Below are positions 2,768 to 51,843 of a DNA stretch of 64,000 bases, one piece after another; within the stretch, counting starts at the first letter, position 1; every line of letters begins with the position of its first letter. The stretch covers positions 448,001 through 512,000 of the forward strand of contig CAVTRY010000023.1 of the NCBI GenBank assembly GCA_963737265.1, written 5' to 3'. A program made the position numbers and the translations under genes. The notes beneath the pieces are model-generated. The model had not been told where the DNA came from. It did not search any database and worked only from the letters and a program-made list of their open reading frames with translations. The stretch is from an uncultured delta proteobacterium. Lineage in GTDB: Bacteria > Myxococcota_A > Polyangia > Fen-1088.

Positions 2768-3613
2768 CTACGTCTGCTCCGCCCCTGCTGGGACTCTAGC
2801 TACTTGCTCAGCAGCCGCGCCGCCGAGGAGCGCCTGGGCGTTCTTCCAAAAAAGACTGTTCTCGCGCTCCTCGCCGAGCGCCAGCGCACGCGCTAGCCGC
2901 AGGGTTTCCGCTTGGCTGGTCCAGGGAGAATCCGTGCCGAACAGAATCCGATCCGCGGGATGCGCCATCAGCATGGCACGCGCACGTTCGCGTCCGAGCA
3001 GCTCGATGCTGAGGGAGATGTCCAAGGTGATGGGCTTGCCGAGCAGGTGTTTTTCCACCTCGTCCCAGTCGTCCCACGCGCCCATGTGCGTGGCGACGAG
3101 CTTGAGATCGGGCACGCGATCCATCACACGCAGGATGCGCGCGGGGTCGGCCCTTCGTTCGCGAGCGAAGGCAAAGTCGAAGCCGGTGTGGCAGACCACG
3201 AACAGCCCAAGTTCGTCGAGCGCGCGGTAGAGCGGGAAGAGTCTCTCGTCATCGAGATCGAAGTCTTGGTAATAGGGGTGAAGCTTGATCCCGCGAAAGC
3301 CACCCTCGGCGACTTGGCGAGCCTGCCCAACCGGATCCCGCGCCATCGGGTGAATCGACGGCAGCGGCACGATGCGCGGCGAAGCGATTTCCCCCGACCA
3401 TTTCAGGATGGGCTCGAACTGCTCGGGCTTGGTGGCGATGGAACAGACCACAGATGTTTCGATGCCGGCGCTATCCATCGATGCCAAGAGCGAGGTTACG
3501 CGTCCAGCGTGAAAGGCCTTCACGCCGCCGCCGCGTTCCAGGTGGCCGATGGCCCGCGCGGCCAGAGCATCCGGGAATACGTGGGCGTGAAAATCGACGA
3601 TGGCGTCGTTCAT
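2768..3613 (-). CDS. Amidohydrolase_2-family metal-dependent hydrolase
   Basis: DFHAH, GIKLHP, HTG, HMG and LFGTDSP motifs. Confidence 0.9.
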   Translation of the reverse strand: MNDAIVDFHAHVFPDALAARAIGHLERGGGVKAFHAGRVTSLLASMDSAGIETSVVCSIATKPEQFEPILKWSGEIASPRIVPLPSIHPMARDPVGQARQVAEGGFRGIKLHPYYQDFDLDDERLFPLYRALDELGLFVVCHTGFDFAFARERRADPARILRVMDRVPDLKLVATHMGAWDDWDEVEKHLLGKPITLDISLSIELLGRERARAMLMAHPADRILFGTDSPWTSQAETLRLARALALGEERENSLFWKNAQALLGGAAAEQVARVPAGAEQT

Positions 3614-5859: not shown

Positions 5860-6439
5860 GGGTGCTTCCCTGAAATGGGGGCTGGGGCTTCACCTCGCCC
5901 CGCGCAGGTGGGATCGGAGGGAAAAACAGGGAGGAACGGAGGACCAGAGGGATCACGGGTTGGGTTGACGAGGCGGCGGAGACCCTCGCGAAGTACGGGG
6001 ACGTGGAAATTGACGAGCAGGCCCACCGGCAGTCGTAGGAGCTTGGGATAGGTAATGACCTGTGCCAAGTGGGACAGGAAGCAACTGCTCTACCGTCTTG
6101 ACTTCGACGACCAAACGGCCTTCCACCATGAGGTCGAGGCGATAGCCGCAGTCGAGGTCAATGCCTTTGTACTGCAGAGGAATCGCGACCTGACGTTGCG
6201 TGCGAAATCCACGCAGGCCTAGCTCGCGCGCCAGGCAGTGCTCGTAGGCCGACTCAAGCAGCCCGGGACCGAGGTGACGGTGGACTTCGATGCAGGCGGC
6301 GATAATTTGCCCAGTAAAGTCATCCTGTCTCTGTTTCTCCGTTCCTCGCTGTTCCATATCTGCGTTTTCGGCGGCACTCCGCCAGAAGTTGCTACCTCAC
6401 CGAGCCCCCGGCTGGGGCCCCCGTTTCAGGGAGGCACCC
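5860..6439 (-). mobile_element. GxxExxY-carrying TIR element, copy 1 (580 bp)
   Basis: Left end GGGTGCTTCCCTGAAATGGGGGC; right end (reverse complement) GGGTGCCTCCCTGAAACGGGGGC, 21/23 identical. Flanked by the direct repeat CGAGTCCTC at 5851-5859 and 6440-6448. Confidence 0.95.
5953..6357 (-). pseudogene. GxxExxY protein, frameshifted in this copy
   Basis: HRHLGPGLLESAYE, YRLDLMVEG and VEVK motifs. One extra G near 6071 relative to copy 3 moves the C-terminus (AQVITY..GLLVNF) into another frame; this may be a sequencing error. Confidence 0.85.
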
Positions 6440-12406: not shown

Positions 12407-13856
12407 GGATTTTCGCTCCCAGGATGTGAACAGGACCTCGGTCGGCGTTGAACCCGGGGTTCCACAGAAATTGGTAGTCGCCCGCGAGCCAGACCGCCTT
12501 GAGAAGATTCACGCTGTAGAAGCCCTCGACGATGCCCTCGGCGGCCTGGCGAAGGTAGCCGTCGCCGATGAAGCCGTCGACGCCGCCCATGGCCAGGTAC
12601 TTGGCATGGACGGCCGAGATCCAGCTCGCGCCGAAGCCGACGCCGGTGACGTCGAAGGGCCGGTTCCACAAGGTGCCCTTGGCCACAGCTCCAAAGGAGA
12701 AGGATCGGTCGGCTGGATTGTAGGCGTCGACCTCGGTGTTGCCGTCGGAGTACATCGCACGCAAGAACACGCCGACATCTTTGGCGAGGTATTGTTCGAG
12801 GTTGATGCCGATGCCCAACTTCACGTTGGACCTTCGAACCCAGCACATGTCGGGTGCACTGGAATTCTTGGAGCCGTAGTTAAAGCTCGTGATCGGGCAG
12901 TCGGCGGCATTTTCCGCAGGATTGGCCTCGAACGCCGCGATAGCTTCGTCGAAGCGCCCGGTGATCACGTGATTCCGATAACCGAGGAGGCGCACGGCAC
13001 CCGAACGGCCGAAAAGCGAGTGATCGTGCTCGAGCTCCAACTGGTCGCCGTAATGCTCCCAGATCCGGAAGTCCTGCGGAAGCTGGTTCGGGTTCTGCGG
13101 CGGCGTGATGCGGCCGAGCCGAAGCGCCCACTCGTCCAAGTAGAGCTCGGCGGTGCCGCCCCACGAGTAACCTCGTGCGTCTGACGGGAAATCCCACGAC
13201 GAGTGGGTCATGAAGGCCATGTTGAAAAAGGTCTGGCGCGGATCCCCGGTGACCGAGTTCCGGTCGAACACGTCGAGAATGGTGAAGCTGCCGAGGGTGA
13301 GGACGAGCCGACGGCTGTCGACGACGGACCCGAGCTGAAGCGGGTCGGACGCCTTGACGACGTGGTCGCCGCCAAGGCCGAAAGTCTGTCGCAGAAAGAG
13401 GCGAGAGCGATAAAGCTGGGGCGTCTCCGTTCCTCCCTTTTGCAGCTCGAAGTTCTGGATAGCGCCGCCTATGCCGTGCAGCCCCGAGAGTGGCCGCTCG
13501 GCAATGACCTCGGGAACGAAGTAGGCTTCACCCCCCGACCACAGCTTGAGCCCGAAGAACAGGGAAAAGGTGCCAGTGAAGCTGCGCTCGGCACCTGGCA
13601 CGAGCGAGTTGATGCTGCCGTTTGCGTTGGTGTAGGGAGCCTTGAACGGCAGCTTCCAGCTCGAAATGTAGGTGAACTGGCCGTAGACATTCCAGCTCTC
13701 TTTGTCGATGTCGTGCGAGCCATGCTGCGAAAGCAGGGTCATGACGTCGAACGCTGCGTCCTCGTGCGCCGCCGGCGGGCCGGCCTGCGCGTTCGCGCGA
13801 GTGGATGCGAACAAGACGCAAGCGACGAGGCTGGCTGGCAGTAGACGGGACCACAT
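12393..13856 (-). CDS. OprB-family porin, MnoP (Mn2+ porin)-like
   Basis: WNVYGQFTY..FKAPY, RLFLRQTFG, WDFPSDARGY and C-terminal NPGFNADRGPV..HAEF. Confidence 0.85.
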   Translation of the reverse strand: MWSRLLPASLVACVLFASTRANAQAGPPAAHEDAAFDVMTLLSQHGSHDIDKESWNVYGQFTYISSWKLPFKAPYTNANGSINSLVPGAERSFTGTFSLFFGLKLWSGGEAYFVPEVIAERPLSGLHGIGGAIQNFELQKGGTETPQLYRSRLFLRQTFGLGGDHVVKASDPLQLGSVVDSRRLVLTLGSFTILDVFDRNSVTGDPRQTFFNMAFMTHSSWDFPSDARGYSWGGTAELYLDEWALRLGRITPPQNPNQLPQDFRIWEHYGDQLELEHDHSLFGRSGAVRLLGYRNHVITGRFDEAIAAFEANPAENAADCPITSFNYGSKNSSAPDMCWVRRSNVKLGIGINLEQYLAKDVGVFLRAMYSDGNTEVDAYNPADRSFSFGAVAKGTLWNRPFDVTGVGFGASWISAVHAKYLAMGGVDGFIGDGYLRQAAEGIVEGFYSVNLLKAVWLAGDYQFLWNPGFNADRGPVHILGAKIHAEF

Positions 13857-17825: not shown

Positions 17826-18188
17826 GGGGCAGCCCTTTCGAGGTGTTGAGAAGCCCGCTACTAAGAACGGGATTTGTTCCCCGGCGGTCGCGTAGCGGGC
17901 ACATCGCCTCTCCCCGCCGCCACGCGGTCGCCACGCGGAAAGAGGCCGCCGCGAAGCGCGGCGGGTGAGGGGCAGAAGAAGCCGGCTTCTCGCCAGCACA
18001 CCCTCACCCGCCGACGCAGACGTCGGCCGCAGTCGTTGAACATCAGGGTCGTGTCGATGCGGAAATTCGACCGCACCACGTGACGCTCGGCATTAAGGAC
18101 GACCAAGGGACAGACGTTGCCCTTGCTGATGCCCAGGTTGGATACCTGGGCGTCGATGTGCATCGTTTGGGTTTCGGCGCCCTCACCC

Positions 18189-21025: not shown

Positions 21026-23374
21026 ATGACAAGGATCAGGATTCCCTGCGCTATCACCCGAGGCACGCCGCTGGTCGGCTCGTTTGCGCGGTATTGCCCA
21101 ATTGCCATTGTGGTATTTTTGACGACAAGTTGCTCAAACGCATCTATCGTCAACCCAGGAACAGGCGGTATGGGCGGGCAGCAATCGACTGGGACCGGCT
21201 CTGGAGGAACAAGCGGAAATGGCCAGACATCCACCGCCACCAGCATCACCATCACGACTCCCGACGCAGCCGCCGACCGCCCAACCGGCGGCCACTGTGG
21301 GGACGGGATCCTCGAAACGGGCGAGCAATGCGATGATGGCAATACGGTCAGTGGTGACGGATGCAATGCTCTCTGTCAAATTGAGGCCAATTGGATCTGT
21401 CCGACCCCCGGCCAGCCTTGCCAGAATCTCGGGGTTTGCGGAAATGGCATTCTCACATCGAACAAAGCGTGTGACGATGGTAATACGGTCAGCGGAGACG
21501 GCTGTTCAGCCGATTGCCAAGCCGTCGAACCGGGCTACGTCTGCCGTGTCCCCGGAAAGCCCTGCACCGTCTTGTGTGGGGACGGCATGGTAAAAGGAAC
21601 GGAGCAATGCGACGACGGCAACACCGTGAATGGCGATGGCTGTTCCGCCACCTGCAAGGTCGAGCCCGGCTACCAGTGCAAAGGCAGTCCCAGCGTTTGC
21701 ACGGCCACGGTTTGTGGAAACGGCAAAGTCGAAGGCGGAGAGGGGTGCGACGATGGCAACACCATGCCTTTCGATGGGTGCTCGGAGGACTGCCAGATTG
21801 AACCCATCTGCTCGGGTGCTTCCGGGTGTACGTCTCCCTGTGGGGACGGCATCATCATGGGCAGCAAGCAGTGCGACGACGGCAATAGCACGAGTGGCGA
21901 CGGCTGCTCCTCGACTTGTCAGGTCGAGCCCGGCTGGACCTGCACGCAGCCACCCCTCGGCAACAAGATGATGGTGCCGGTCATCTATCGAGACTTCCGC
22001 TTTCACAATCCCGCCGACTTCGAAGCCGGCGTAATGGGGTCGACTACTGCCACCACCGGCATCGTCGAACCGAGCTTGGACGGGGACGGGAAGCCGGTCT
22101 TCACCGGACTCGCCACTGCTCACATCCAGAGCGTCGCCACCTTTGCCGAATGGTATCGCACAACCCCTGGCGTCAACGATCCGACGGCCTCCAAGTTGGC
22201 GTTGTGGGACAACGGCCAAGGCGGCTACGTCAACCGCTACGGTCCCAATGGCGAACAATGGAACGTAACGACAACGGCCAACTGGTGCGGCCAGGTTGGG
22301 GAAGAGCTGCTGAACGCTGCCGGCAATCCCCAGCCCTGCACCTTCCAATACCAGCAATCGGCAACCAATCCGACGGGAGGCCAGACCGATTGCCAGAAGA
22401 TGGACGCTCTTGGCTACACCCAGCTCACATGCTTCCTCAACGGCACGACCTATGCCGCAACCTATGTCGTCGCCAAGGTCGACGGCAATCCCCTCTTCTT
22501 TCCTATCGACAACGACCCATTTTCGGCCGACCAGCTCGAAGGTGCTCAAGTTCCCTCCGCTCCGCTGGGGCTGTACGACGCCACAGGAACCTGGCCGTGG
22601 GATGTGGACGCGAATGGGAACAAGATTCTGCACAACTTCAGCTTCACCAGCGAAACGCGCTACTGGTTCAAGTACGACTCAGCCAAGGCATTTACCCTCG
22701 ATTTCGTCGGCGATGACGACGTTTGGGTGTTCATCAATAGGAAGCTGGCGGTCGATCTGGGAGGCATCAAAACGCCGGTGGAAGGTTCCGTCACCCTGGA
22801 TGCCGCGACCATCGCCAGACTGAACCTCGGGCTGCAAAACGGGAATGCTTACGAAATTGCAGTCTTCCAGACCGAGCGTCAGACCACCGGGTCGACCTAC
22901 AAGTTGACCCTGAATGGATTCGATGCCGCTCCCAGTAGCTGCGTTCCCACCTGTGGCGACGGAATCGCGGTCGCCAGCGAGGAGTGCGACTGCGGCAATG
23001 GCACAGTGGCCGTCCCCGCAGGCTGTCCGGGTCCGAATAGCGATACGACGTACGGCGGCTGCACCACGCAGTGCAAGTGGGGCCCTTTCTGCGGAGATGG
23101 CGTCGTGCAGGGGCCGCCACCCAGTGGCCCAGAGGAATGCGACCTAGGCAAGCAGAACGGAGATACCACCCTGGGCAAGGGCGGGTGTACCTTCGCGTGC
23201 AAGAAGCCACATTTTTGCGGCGATGGAAATGTCGATACGGATTTGGGCGAGGTATGCGACATGGGCGCTCTCAATGGCGTTGCGGTCGACGCGAGCGGAA
23301 ATCCATCGAGTGCGCCAGATGCCCAGGTCCTCTGCACGACAGATTGCGCGATTCCCCCGGGAACTGTCTACTAA
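21026..23374 (+). CDS. Fibro-slime-domain lipoprotein with Myxococcus cysteine-rich (DUF4215) repeats
   Basis: Repeated CGDG...EQCDDGN..SGDGCS..C units, plus YRDF, HNFSFTSE and GDDDVWVFIN fibro-slime motifs. Confidence 0.92.
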   Translation: MTRIRIPCAITRGTPLVGSFARYCPIAIVVFLTTSCSNASIVNPGTGGMGGQQSTGTGSGGTSGNGQTSTATSITITTPDAAADRPTGGHCGDGILETGEQCDDGNTVSGDGCNALCQIEANWICPTPGQPCQNLGVCGNGILTSNKACDDGNTVSGDGCSADCQAVEPGYVCRVPGKPCTVLCGDGMVKGTEQCDDGNTVNGDGCSATCKVEPGYQCKGSPSVCTATVCGNGKVEGGEGCDDGNTMPFDGCSEDCQIEPICSGASGCTSPCGDGIIMGSKQCDDGNSTSGDGCSSTCQVEPGWTCTQPPLGNKMMVPVIYRDFRFHNPADFEAGVMGSTTATTGIVEPSLDGDGKPVFTGLATAHIQSVATFAEWYRTTPGVNDPTASKLALWDNGQGGYVNRYGPNGEQWNVTTTANWCGQVGEELLNAAGNPQPCTFQYQQSATNPTGGQTDCQKMDALGYTQLTCFLNGTTYAATYVVAKVDGNPLFFPIDNDPFSADQLEGAQVPSAPLGLYDATGTWPWDVDANGNKILHNFSFTSETRYWFKYDSAKAFTLDFVGDDDVWVFINRKLAVDLGGIKTPVEGSVTLDAATIARLNLGLQNGNAYEIAVFQTERQTTGSTYKLTLNGFDAAPSSCVPTCGDGIAVASEECDCGNGTVAVPAGCPGPNSDTTYGGCTTQCKWGPFCGDGVVQGPPPSGPEECDLGKQNGDTTLGKGGCTFACKKPHFCGDGNVDTDLGEVCDMGALNGVAVDASGNPSSAPDAQVLCTTDCAIPPGTVY

Positions 23375-28690: not shown

Positions 28691-29188
28691 CTACCTGGTT
28701 CGGGTGCTTCCCTGAAATGGGGGCTGGGGCTTCACCTCGCTGGGATCGGAAGGAAAGACAGGGAGGAACGGAGGATCAGAGGGATCAAGGGTTGGGTTCA
28801 CGAGGCGGCGGAGACCCTCGCGAAGTACGGGGACGTGGAAATTGACGAGCAGGCCAACCGGCAGTCGTAGGAGCTTGAGATAGGCAATGACCTGTGCCAA
28901 GTGGACAGGAAGCAACCGTTCTACCGCCTTGACTTCGACCACCAAACGGCCTTCCACCACGAGGTCGAGGTGATAGCCGCAGTCAAGGTCAAGTCCTTTG
29001 TACTGCAGAAGAATCGCGACCTGACGTTGAGTGCGAAATCCACGCAGGCCTAGCTCGCGCGCCAGGCAGTGCTCGTAGGCCGACTCAAGCAGCCCCGGAC
29101 CGAGGTGACCGGTGGACTTCGATGCAGGCGGCGATAATTTGCCCAGTAAAGTTATGCTGTCTCTGATTCTCCGTTCCTCCCTGTTCCC
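28691..29188 (-). pseudogene. GxxExxY pseudogene
   Basis: GPGLLESAYE retained; start ATG changed to AGG; +1 C near 29110. Confidence 0.85.
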
Positions 29189-29270
29189 TATCTGCGTTTT
29201 CGGCGGCACTCCGCCAGAAGTTGCTACCTCACCGAGCCGCCGGCTGGGCCCCCGTTTCAGGGATGCACCC
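28702..29270 (-). mobile_element. GxxExxY-carrying TIR element, copy 2 (569 bp, diverged)
   Basis: Same termini (right end ...CAGGGATGCACCC). Flanks ACCTGGTTC (28693-28701) and TCCGGGTTC (29271-29279) match 7/9. Has a 10-bp internal deletion near the left end. Confidence 0.93.
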
Positions 29271-48456: not shown

Positions 48457-49338
48457 CTAGGAGGGAGTTCTCAATAGTTGCCCCAGGTAGCCCCGCCAGC
48501 GGTTCCATATCCGCCACTTTAGTGCGATCGCGAGCGCAACGCGCGAGGCAAGCGCGACTCTCCCGTGCCGTCCGAGTGGCTCATAGACCGGCGAGCGCCA
48601 GGCGATGTCCGCTCCGACGGCCGACAGAATCGCCTCCGACCAATAGCGTGCTTGCCACTTCGGCAGGCGGAGTGTCGACACGATCGCATCCCAGTTCGCC
48701 GAGGCGCCACCGAGGTGTTTGATAACTTGGGTCGTGGGGATGGTCGCGATCTTCCCGCGGAAGGCGATGGACGCCATCCACAGCCAATCGCCACCCATCG
48801 TGTTGGGCATCCAGGGAAGATCGATCAAAGCTTGGCGTCGGATAATGCCGTGGAAGGCACCATTCTCCTCCACGGTCTTGTAGTAGCGCACGACGCGGTC
48901 GCTGGGCGAGTCGTCGAGCAACTGGGTCGGCGCGGAGGTGTAGCTGAATTCTCCCGCGCGATACATTTGCGATGTGCCGCACACCAAGATCAAATCCGGC
49001 GTGGAAAGAAGCTTTTCGAGGCACGCGCTGACGTAGTTCGGATCGAGCCAGTCGTCGTCGGCCAGAGCGATGTACATCTCGCCCGTCGCGGCCTTGAGCA
49101 CCGCCTGATAGTTTGCGGTGGGACCAATATTGGTTGGCTGTCGAAGACAGCGGATCCGACCGTCGCGTTGGCAAAGGCGTTCACAGACCTGCGGCGTATC
49201 GTCGGTCGAGGCGTTATCGGAGATGACGACCTCGAGGTTCTTGTAGTCCTGCGCCAGAACGAACTCCAGCGCGCGCTCCAGCTTGCGCGCGCGGTTGTAG
49301 GTGGGCAGGCCAATGCTTACGAGCGGTGTGGACGTCAT
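48457..49338 (-). CDS. GT2 glycosyltransferase
   Basis: VSIGLPTYN, DNASTD and ADDD motifs. Confidence 0.92.
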   Translation of the reverse strand: MTSTPLVSIGLPTYNRARKLERALEFVLAQDYKNLEVVISDNASTDDTPQVCERLCQRDGRIRCLRQPTNIGPTANYQAVLKAATGEMYIALADDDWLDPNYVSACLEKLLSTPDLILVCGTSQMYRAGEFSYTSAPTQLLDDSPSDRVVRYYKTVEENGAFHGIIRRQALIDLPWMPNTMGGDWLWMASIAFRGKIATIPTTQVIKHLGGASANWDAIVSTLRLPKWQARYWSEAILSAVGADIAWRSPVYEPLGRHGRVALASRVALAIALKWRIWNRWRGYLGQLLRTPS

Positions 49339-49447
49339 CGCCCGTCGGTACTACCACAGGCGATTTTGACCTTAAAGCGCAACGTGGGGCTCGGTGCAGG
49401 GGATGATGACTTGGCCGCCGTGGCGTCGACGCTATCGATCACCTGCG

Positions 49448-50026
49448 GGGTGCCTCCCTGAAACGGGGGCCCCAGCCGGGGGCTCGGTGAGGTAGCAACT
49501 TCTGGCGGAGTGCCGCCGAAAACGCAGATATGGAACAGCGAGGAACGGAGAAACAGAGACAGGATGACTTTACTGGGCAAATTATCGCCGCCTGCATCGA
49601 AGTCCACCGTCACCTCGGTCCCGGGCTGCTTGAGTCGGCCTACGAGCACTGCCTGGCGCGCGAGCTAGGCCTGCGTGGATTTCGCACGCAACGTCAGGTC
49701 GCGATTCCTCTGCAGTACAAAGGCATTGACCTCGACTGCGGCTATCGCCTCGACCTCATGGTGGAAGGCCGTTTGGTCGTCGAAGTCAAGGCGGTAGAGC
49801 AGTTGCTTCCTGTCCACTTGGCACAGGTCATTACCTATCTCAAGCTCCTACGACTGCCGGTGGGCCTGCTCGTCAATTTCCACGTCCCCGTACTTCGCGA
49901 GGGTCTCCGCCGCCTCGTCAACCCAACCCGTGATTCCTCTGGTCCTCCGTTCCTCCCTGTTTTTCCCTCCGATCCCACCTGCGCGGGGCGAGGTGAAGCC
50001 CCAGCCCCCATTTCAGGGAAGCACCC
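49448..50026 (+). mobile_element. GxxExxY-carrying TIR element, copy 3 (579 bp, intact)
   Basis: GGGTGCCTCCCTGAAACGGGGGC ... GCCCCCATTTCAGGGAAGCACCC; perfect direct repeat TCACCTGCG at 49439-49447 and 50027-50035. Confidence 0.96.
49530..50026 (+). CDS. GxxExxY (PDDEXK_3) nuclease-family protein; the frame stays open through the right TIR to 50735
   Basis: GPGLLESAYE, RLDLMVE, VEVK, AQVITYLK and GLLVNF motifs; the conserved domain ends at about 49925. Confidence 0.92.
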
Positions 50027-50079
50027 TCACCTGCGGCCCGGCCTTGCCCATTCCACCCGGAGTGGTCTAGACATGGAGG

Positions 50080-51313
50080 ATGGGTGTCAAAACATCATGC
50101 CGCTCCTGCGGGGGCAGCGGTCTCGAGTTGGTACTTTCCTTGGGATCCACGCCTTTGGCCAACGCGCTGGTTCGCGACCCAGCAGCGGGCCCCGAGCCTC
50201 GCTATCCGCTCGATCTCGTCTTCTGTCCGACCTGCACCCTGGTTCAAATCACCGAGACCGTTCCCCCGGAACAGCTGTTCAGCGACTACCTGTATTTCTC
50301 CTCGTTCTCCGACACCATGCTAGCGCACGCGCGCGAGTTGGTCGGCCGGTTCGTGGCCGCAGGGCAACTCGGGCCAGGTTCGCTGGCCATGGAGATCGCC
50401 AGCAACGATGGCTATCTCCTGCAGTACTACAAAGAGGCGGGCGTTCCTGCGCTTGGCATCGAGCCAGCGCGGAACGTGGCGCGCGTCGCGGTCGAAGAGC
50501 GGGGGATACCCACCCTCGCCGAGTTTTTCGATCTCGCCTTGGCGTCGCGACTACGCGCCGAAGGGAAGCGTGCCGATGTTTTGCACGCAAACAACGTTCT
50601 GGCGCACGTCGCGGACTTAAACGGTTTCGTCGCCGGCATCCGCGAGGTGCTCAAAACGGACGGCATCGCGGCGTTGGAATTCCCATACCTCGGCGACATG
50701 ATCGACAGGTGCGAGTTCGACACCATCTACCATGAGCACCTCTGCTACTTTTCCATCACCGCCCTCAAGCATCTTTTCGAACGCCACGGCCTCAAGATCG
50801 TCGATGTCGAGCACGTCCCCATCCACGGCGGCTCACTCCTGCTGCAAGTTGGTCACCGCGACTCCCCAAGCAACCCGGGACCATCCGTTGCGGCGCTGCT
50901 CGAACGAAGAGCACCGGCGCGGGTTTGCCACCATCGACTTCTATCGCAGTTTCGCTCGGCGCGTGTTCGAGCTCAAGGAAGAGCTTTTGTCGCTCCTCGC
51001 GCGCTTCAAGCGCGAAGGCAAACGCATTGCCGCCTACGGTGCGGCGGCCAAGGGAAGCACGCTTCTCAACGTCTTCGGTATCGGTGGCGAAACGTTGGAC
51101 TTCGTCGCCGACCGCAGCACTTACAAGCAGGGGCGCTACATGCCCGGGGTGCGTATTCCCATCGTTGCGCCCGACCGACTGTGCGAAGCGAGGCCCGACT
51201 ACACGTTGCTGCTCACCTGGAACTTCGCAGAGGAGATTTTTCGCCAACAGGCGGAGTACCGCCGTTTGGGAGGACGATTCATTCTGCCCCTCCCGGAAGT
51301 GAGAGTCGTTTGA
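50080..51313 (+). CDS. NDP-hexose C-methyltransferase (frameshift near 50905)
   Basis: CRSCG, CPTC, EIASNDG and DTIYHEHLCYF; YGAAAKG, KQGRYMPG and WNFAEEI lie in the next frame. Confidence 0.9.
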
Positions 51314-51843
51314 TCTTTTCGGACACCGCGGTCGCCGGTGCGACCTTGATTCGGCCCGAACGCCTCGATGACGAGCGAGGTTTCTTCGCCCGCACGTACT
51401 GCGTGCGCGAACTGCGAGAACACAACGTGGATCCCCAGGTCGTCCAGCGCAGTATCTCGTACAACCGCGTGCGTGGAACGCTGCGGGGCATGCATTTTCA
51501 GAACGCGCCTTACGAGGAGAACAAGTTCGTCTCCTGCTCTCGCGGATCGATTCACGATGTCGTACTCGACCTTCGGCCAGACTCGGCGACCTACCGAACC
51601 TGGGTCGCGATCACGTTGACGAGTCAAGGTTTCGAAACCCTCTTCGTTCCAAAGGGATGCGCCCACGGGTTCATGACCCTTTCGGACGACACGATCGTTC
51701 AGTACGACATCTCTGATTTCTTCCATCCCGAATCGTCCCGCGGCATACGCTTCGACGATCCAACTTTCGCCATCGAGTGGCCCATGGATCCAGTCGTCAT
51801 CAGCGCGCGCGATCTAGCTCTTCCACCCTACGCCAGTCCATAG
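51310..51843 (+). CDS. rfbC: dTDP-4-dehydrorhamnose 3,5-epimerase family protein
   Basis: DERGFF, TLRGMHFQ, DLRPDS and AHGF motifs; TTGA overlap with the upstream stop. Confidence 0.9.
   Translation: MIFSDTAVAGATLIRPERLDDERGFFARTYCVRELREHNVDPQVVQRSISYNRVRGTLRGMHFQNAPYEENKFVSCSRGSIHDVVLDLRPDSATYRTWVAITLTSQGFETLFVPKGCAHGFMTLSDDTIVQYDISDFFHPESSRGIRFDDPTFAIEWPMDPVVISARDLALPPYASP

Follow-up and report, generated by a model that had tools for sequence, protein, structure and literature searches.

Why does a small gene for a predicted nuclease lie between inverted repeats of its own inside a mobile cassette, and what do these inner repeats do there? The question is raised by a window of 64,000 nucleotides, the whole stretch of DNA that was analysed, from an uncultured delta proteobacterium. 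It contains a GxxExxY gene bracketed by two inner arms, with an outer pair of terminal inverted repeats (TIRs) further out (Table 1). According to the reading favoured here, to which we assign a probability of a little under 0.6, the locus is a nested unit: gene and arms form an inner module that would have been captured by a cassette derived from an ISKra4-family insertion sequence (IS), the arms being candidate sites for the nuclease. Regarding its parts, we regard nesting and capture as highly probable, and we give even odds to the proposal that the predicted enzyme acts on the arms.

Table 1. Position of the cassette, its components, its neighbours and its further copies within the window.
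Feature	Position	Strand	Remarks
Whole cassette	49448..50026	+	579 bp, between divergent genes
Family 2 glycosyltransferase gene	48457-49338	-	flanks the window cassette
Methyltransferase/dTDP-sugar epimerase gene	50080-51843	+	flanks the window cassette
Target-site duplication, left copy	49439..49447	+	9 bp
Left TIR	49448..49469	+	22 bp; agrees with each end of the ISKra4-family IS on C20 at 19/22
GxxExxY gene	49530..49943	+	PF13366 at residues 13-128; TIGR04256
Inner left arm	49534..49558	+	three purine-rich ~8-nt units; codons 2-10 of the GxxExxY ORF
Inner right arm	49937..49961	-	matches the left arm in inverse orientation at 22/25; codons 136-144
Right TIR	50005..50026	-	20/22 to left TIR; 17/22 to IS ends
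Target-site duplication, right copy	50027..50035	+	9 bp
Second cassette copy	5860..6439	-	99.3%; arms 5925-5949 and 6329-6353; 9-bp duplication
Third cassette copy	28702..29270	-	93% subfamily; arms 28757-28781 and 29161-29185 (23/25)

The arms were originally predicted to pair at 22 of 25 positions, and direct comparison of the left arm with the reverse complement of the right one gives precisely this value, with no pairing outside of the arms. The same holds for those claimed in the second cassette copy (22/25), the gene of which is frameshifted as assembled, and the third window copy, absent from the original prediction, also carries them; this copy has lost its start codon and has a frameshift and an imperfect target duplication. 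The description of the arms as purine-skewed and quasi-periodic is likewise borne out, with a purine-rich left arm, units of ~8 nt and 8 nt as best internal period, as is their overlap with the codons on either side of the nuclease domain. Subtracting the inner unit from the whole cassette (579 - 428 = 151 bp) also agrees with the claimed nesting of a ~430-bp unit within a ~150-bp shell. Upon folding, the 579-bp element deviates from 100 shuffles by z = -4.39, and within the 428-nt unit 21 of the 22 complementary arm positions reach pairing probabilities of 0.95-1.0, the outermost one being at 0.55. The predicted fold of the inner unit displays a 25-bp terminal stem that closes an ORF, as do the stems of ~25-30 bp in rRNA intervening sequences.

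Considering that the arms are short, of low complexity and, in the cassette subtype, coding, they might be taken for a meaningless inverted repeat arising by chance from purine-rich codons. Nonetheless, the ungapped inverted repeats in the whole window that reach 21/25 or more and span 300-600 number 24, and every one of them corresponds to arms or TIRs of the three copies, no other such repeat being present. Moreover, of 103 homologue loci entered, 91 were kept (2 at a contig edge, 3 duplicates and 7 partial or unmatched ones being dropped), and inverted arms with a score of at least 32 were found at 57 of them versus none of 1297 shifted windows of equal geometry. The conserved pairing among homologues that the original prediction called for is thus present at 57/91 loci, and the remaining 34 show no clear arms. 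A locus's own right arm was the best partner for its left one in 36 of the 57 armed loci and among the top three in 53, the commonest period being 9 nt (30/57). A stop codon precedes the right arm in 37/57, which makes this arm non-coding in those homologues. The chance reading is refuted by these figures, and its probability is practically nil. Elsewhere in the window, positions 13417-13441 match the right arm partially (72%) outside of any cassette copy, and a 97-nt repeat occurs four times within a long ORF (21296-21935), probably encoding cysteine-rich protein repeats.

The outer layer was then considered at the level of the genome (6.55 Mb), where the cassette gives 37 matches longer than 400 bp at 93-100% identity. 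Both ends are present in 31 of these copies, and the 9-bp target duplication is exact in 30 of the 31. The cassette itself encodes no transposase. The genome has a single ISKra4-family IS (C20:66979-69098; 2120 bp, with a 9-bp duplication of its own), the transposase of which comprises 477 residues and scores 256.8 bits with NF033572 (cut-off 205). PMC3942029 describes inverted repeats of 18-39 bp with a terminal C and duplications of 8-9 bp for the ISKra4 superfamily, and the TIRs and duplication of the cassette fit the features given there for the ISKra4-group p-MULT; mobile insertion cassettes are defined, in PMC3129680, as moved in trans. Because of its TIRs, its 9-bp duplication and the matching end sequences of the IS, the shell is an ordinary IS derivative, and the ends and duplication length suggest that it is likely mobilised in trans by the resident ISKra4 transposase. 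Left-TIR hits with at most 4 mismatches amount to 76 genome-wide, 73 lying in cassette copies, 2 bounding the IS and 1 being a lone weak match; the empty shells envisaged by the original prediction were found at none of these 76 hits. No joint skipping the core appeared in the short-read contigs, which tells against the favoured reading.

Alternatively, the gene might encode the transposase that moves the 579-bp element, its TIRs and the inner arms then acting together as a two-part end. GxxExxY is indeed the only gene in this 37-copy element, whose depth in the short-read contigs (one study, run X1) is ~60 versus ~4 in the flanks, that is, ~15x. Nonetheless, we consider this very improbable, since (i) the ends and the 9-bp duplication match those of the resident ISKra4-family IS, (ii) the cassette TIR is present within 300 bp at 0/91 homologue loci, TIR-less GxxExxY genes numbering one to three per congener genome, and (iii) the frame is broken in 21/37 cassette copies as assembled, some indels maybe being sequencing errors. 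Codons 1-130 are in frame in the other 16/37 copies. Several recurrent 1-bp indels sit in short runs and may be such errors, while a nonsense change and deletions of 4 and 12 bp are not of that kind.

Further observations concern the surroundings of individual copies. Two of them (L004, G000:C20:14118-16133; L005, G000:C23:162554-164571) are interrupted near the TIR by 1.4-kb insertions that share their end sequence and are probably another IS. At G000:C17:62354-63520 two cassettes stand in tandem with one target duplication between them. A second ORF of 144 residues, with no NCBIfam match, lies within the ISKra4-family IS (L001:3028-3462).

Regarding the protein, the window copy scores 140 bits with PF13366 (cut-off 22) and 142 bits with TIGR04256 (cut-off 35). 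Its frame meets no stop within the cassette and, past right arm and TIR, stays open into the flanking DNA, the ORF extending to 50735. Alignment of 52 GxxExxY sequences showed D75, E85 and K87 to be invariant and Q99 and Y103 nearly so, the latter two forming a QxxxY motif that we take to be of the RecB/Cas4 type. The structure model (pLDDT 92.6) has PD-(D/E)XK nucleases as its nearest folds in Foldseek, with Cas4 (SSO0001, Pcal_0546), MGME1, archaeal Hjc resolvase and lambda exonuclease in the top rows and a D-E-x-K core in common; the likeness is weak, with E values of 0.006 or higher, nothing at E 0.001 and TM-scores to the query of 0.3-0.5. A PDB sequence search with the protein gave no match. 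Model and alignment agree with a PD-(D/E)XK fold that has a conserved acidic and lysine core. PF13366 is catalogued as of unknown function in PMC3424549, and no nuclease activity or substrate is recorded for GxxExxY/PF13366 in the literature searched.

Does the inner unit depend on the cassette? The original prediction proposed a search for stand-alone units, and these exist, on C22 of this genome and in two congeners. The sole other GxxExxY gene of the genome, 60% identical, lies on C22 between the YifB/comM gene and recA, with arms of ~55 bp made of CACAGAG-type units and no TIR. In the two congeners, three genes that share 81-91% DNA identity with the cassette core have the identical arm subtype and no cassette TIR, their dN/dS relative to the cassette gene being 0.36, 0.12 and 0.17. 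The comM-recA junction was seen in 12 genomes: 7 have the unit intact there, 3 retain remnants of it and 2 lack it. The gene is open in all 7 intact units, with dN/dS of ~0.09-0.18 (one comparison being saturated), and this TIR-less comM-recA gene evolves under purifying selection. Its tree disagrees with that of recA, the locus being common to 7/12 genomes. A decayed fragment of a comM-recA unit with a right arm is also found just downstream of recA (L002 ~3395-3580; G000:C22:199895-200076). Homologue records for GxxExxY come from many phyla, the nearest named ones being Myxococcales and Deltaproteobacteria. Inner and outer layers have separate distributions, and the inner unit occurs alone.

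Other shells also enclose these arms. A second IS-type shell, found in congeners, has different TIRs and a 5-bp duplication that is exact in 3/5 two-ended elements with an arm pair. It encloses a gene-deleted core of ~180 bp with the cassette arm subtype, and holds unrelated hairpins at four other loci. The third shell contains no gene, has CTAG at its boundaries and measures ~147 bp; it is present in G000 and four congeners. As IS-derived shells of the genus have picked up hairpins repeatedly, capture is the best reading of the nesting. In the window, solitary ends of the second shell lie at 17827-18030 and ~61537, the first with a REP-like hairpin from a different family behind it, and at L219 (G007:C2:58000-58700) what is, to judge by its 5' end and an RT-like ORF, probably a group II intron stands just behind a left arm within the second shell.

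The arms are likewise abundant without the gene. Using CRCAGAGNNCRCAGAG, a motif derived from the comM-recA arms whose counts are matches and not elements, the eight genus genomes with a full gene gave 21, 34, 48, 103, 105, 107, 119 and 281 matches, versus 0, 0, 1, 3 and 7 in the five without it, three of which keep unit remnants at comM-recA. A looser triple motif was applied to 301 genomes of the phylum, 41 with and 260 without a GxxExxY gene. At least 20 matches were found in 22/41 gene-bearing versus 6/260 gene-less genomes, and at least 40 in 13/41 (10 families) versus 0/260, with 19 of the 41 gene-bearing genomes below 20; these counts were read off a table by eye, and the reversed control usually gave fewer than 10 matches, two genomes with 20 and 56 being the exceptions. 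Fisher values overstate the association of gene and repeats because kin genomes are not independent. The genome G049, with a different arm variant at its gene, has 19 matches to that variant, and 4/4 other genomes have 0.

Gene-less arm pairs are thus a dispersed hairpin family whose abundance tracks the GxxExxY gene. Its members are 100-140 bp long and sit at gene junctions, and G049 and G005 also contain arm units arrayed in tandem. At one site four species carry the hairpin and two lack it, no target duplication being present, whereas all five species carry it at another, where the loop is flipped between G000 and G002. Since hairpin sites are old and common to several species, with no target duplication at two empty sites, no recent jump was caught. 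A RAYT as driver of the arm repeats was rejected because the distribution of Y1_Tnp does not follow them, this domain being absent from G003, G008 and G009 and weak in G000. Gene and repeats co-occur, and we infer both the direction of this association and the part of the enzyme in it. Because genomes rich in gene-less arms nearly always carry the gene, the GxxExxY protein likely recognises these arms and helps to spread them. The alternative in the original prediction, that the stem may be a recognition site for the nuclease, gains indirect support from this co-occurrence.

This association could nonetheless be read the other way round. The arm repeats might spread by another route, such as another enzyme, template switching or recombination, or IS-derived shells, and the gene might be a long-standing passenger in one hairpin loop; repeat-rich genomes would then tend to hold the gene because it rides there. 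Consistent with this, the motif gives 114 matches in G044 (91% complete), for which a search that included E 0.1 with an alignment found no GxxExxY gene; arm pairs are carried by three different IS-type shells; and the loop flip between G000 and G002 at an orthologous hairpin reflects arm recombination or a separate insertion. In addition, four-helix-bundle (PF05635) genes lie between inverted tandem arms of their own, with units of 6-7 nt, in 11/25 loci examined, and these analogous arms may point to a general mechanism without a nuclease. On the contrary, purifying selection keeps the gene intact in 7/7 species, which is unexpected for a mere passenger, repeat counts are low in all five congeners without the gene, all 13 high-count genomes (10 families) hold it, and no other small gene was seen between these arms (0 of the 25 four-helix-bundle loci, none of which has the arm motif). 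The passenger explanation appears rather unlikely to us on this balance. Related observations are that the CACAGAG variant is abundant in G009, where all genes found have the other arm subtype, that the cassette arm subtype also occurs in congeners with no found gene of that subtype, largely in IS-type shells, and that at L223, L224, L226 and L243 a PF05635 gene stands between tandem heptamers in inverted orientation, an equal layout made from a different gene and a different repeat.

Whether the arms work as RNA or as DNA was also considered, since the original prediction had suggested that the stem might loop the gene out like an intervening sequence (IVS). According to this proposal, the arms would close a 25-bp RNA stem; cleavage by RNase III would then remove the gene as a loop from operon transcripts, and the cut would silence the nuclease by parting the gene from its start. 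The predicted stem is stable, units and hairpins sit at junctions of co-oriented genes, and the Coxiella IVS (PMC4990558) is alike in its 428 nt, its 28-bp terminal stem and its tandem heptamers before the ORF. However, among 2122 aligned arm columns, mRNA-strand mismatches of the G-U type are not commoner than A-C ones (52 vs 54, p = 0.92), and this absence of strand bias fits a role at the DNA level. The antisense duplex is even the stronger one in the window copy (-38.7 vs -33.4 kcal/mol for the sense one), the rRNA operon (rRNA motifs at C22 ~256-261 kb of this genome) contains none of the cassette copies, and the Rfam search gave no family at threshold. Furthermore, an RNA stem alone leaves hundreds of dispersed, gene-tracking copies unexplained. 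The IVS claim thus found no support, and we judge RNase III processing improbable as the purpose of the arms, although it may occur as a side effect of them.

Returning to the nested-unit reading, the following course of events can be proposed. One copy of the inner unit, a GxxExxY gene with inverted arms that also exists without transposon ends, would have been captured by an ISKra4 cassette and then multiplied as its cargo. The low-copy enzyme would work in trans on arms, as RAYT may do on REPINs, the triple units of 8-10 nt being putative protein-binding DNA sites. The inverted pair might form a hairpin or cruciform nicked by this minimal Cas4/Hjc-like nuclease, after which host repair may complete insertion, inversion or tandem amplification. 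A wider proposal is put forward tentatively, its chances being somewhat below even: a multi-phylum family of hairpin repeats, not described so far, would have its dedicated enzymes in the GxxExxY proteins. Such a counterpart to RAYT-REPIN would employ a minimal Cas4/Hjc-like PD-(D/E)XK nuclease where RAYT employs an HUH transposase, its gene would lie between recognition arms of its own and spread gene-less copies in trans, and one unit would here have been captured by an IS cassette and amplified 37-fold. No link between GxxExxY genes and arms was found in the published literature, in a search covering few subscription journals.

The closest parallel is REPIN-RAYT, in which RAYT is thought to act on REPINs according to PMC5581495. 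Compared with PMC5581495 and PMC6006769, both systems have in common (i) a low-copy, repeat-flanked gene at a fixed chromosomal site, (ii) many intergenic, gene-less hairpin doublets and tandem arrays with an abundance that tracks the gene, and (iii) an arm variant that matches the resident gene, here in the one case tested (G049). They differ in that the enzyme here is a PF13366 PD-(D/E)XK protein and RAYT a Y1 HUH transposase, in that one arm pair encloses the GxxExxY gene, often with an overlap, and in that the arms are triple units of 8-10 nt. The element in the window matches only PF13366 and no Y1 HUH domain, and no GTAG/GTGG tag 5' of a short palindrome was seen by eye in the arms. Given that the enzyme and tag features fail, the GxxExxY unit is not a member of the REPIN-RAYT family.

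The outer layer resembles mobile insertion cassettes and MITEs, as described in PMC3129680 and PMC3942029 (ISKra4 group, p-MULT 4), in having no transposase and a passenger gene, and ISKra4-group cassettes in particular in its 22-bp TIRs ending in C, its 9-bp duplication and the cognate IS in the genome. Unlike usual cassettes, its passenger is a whole unit of nuclease gene plus arms, with 37 copies versus one of the IS. The inner unit also recalls the Coxiella burnetii 23S IVS with S23p (PMC4990558), which shares the length of ~430 nt, a terminal stem of 25-28 bp, short tandem repeats beside the start codon and one small ORF in the loop. It departs from rRNA IVSs in that the cassette is not in rRNA, the ORF has a nuclease fold instead of a four-helix bundle, and there is no G-U bias.

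Altogether, the best reading of our analysis is a REPIN/RAYT-like system with a PD-(D/E)XK nuclease, whose role we infer, captured by an IS derivative of a known and ordinary kind. The large PF13366/TIGR04256 family has no known function, and the arms offer a concrete candidate substrate beside each gene, which opens this function to direct tests. Should the protein spread the hairpins, we would have a second, independent origin of a system made of a domesticated enzyme and its repeats, with a chemistry unlike that of RAYT-REPIN, and an abundant class of intergenic repeats would be explained (>300 motif matches in one sampled genome). A predicted nuclease of 130 residues whose putative target motifs vary in nature could also appeal to tool developers.
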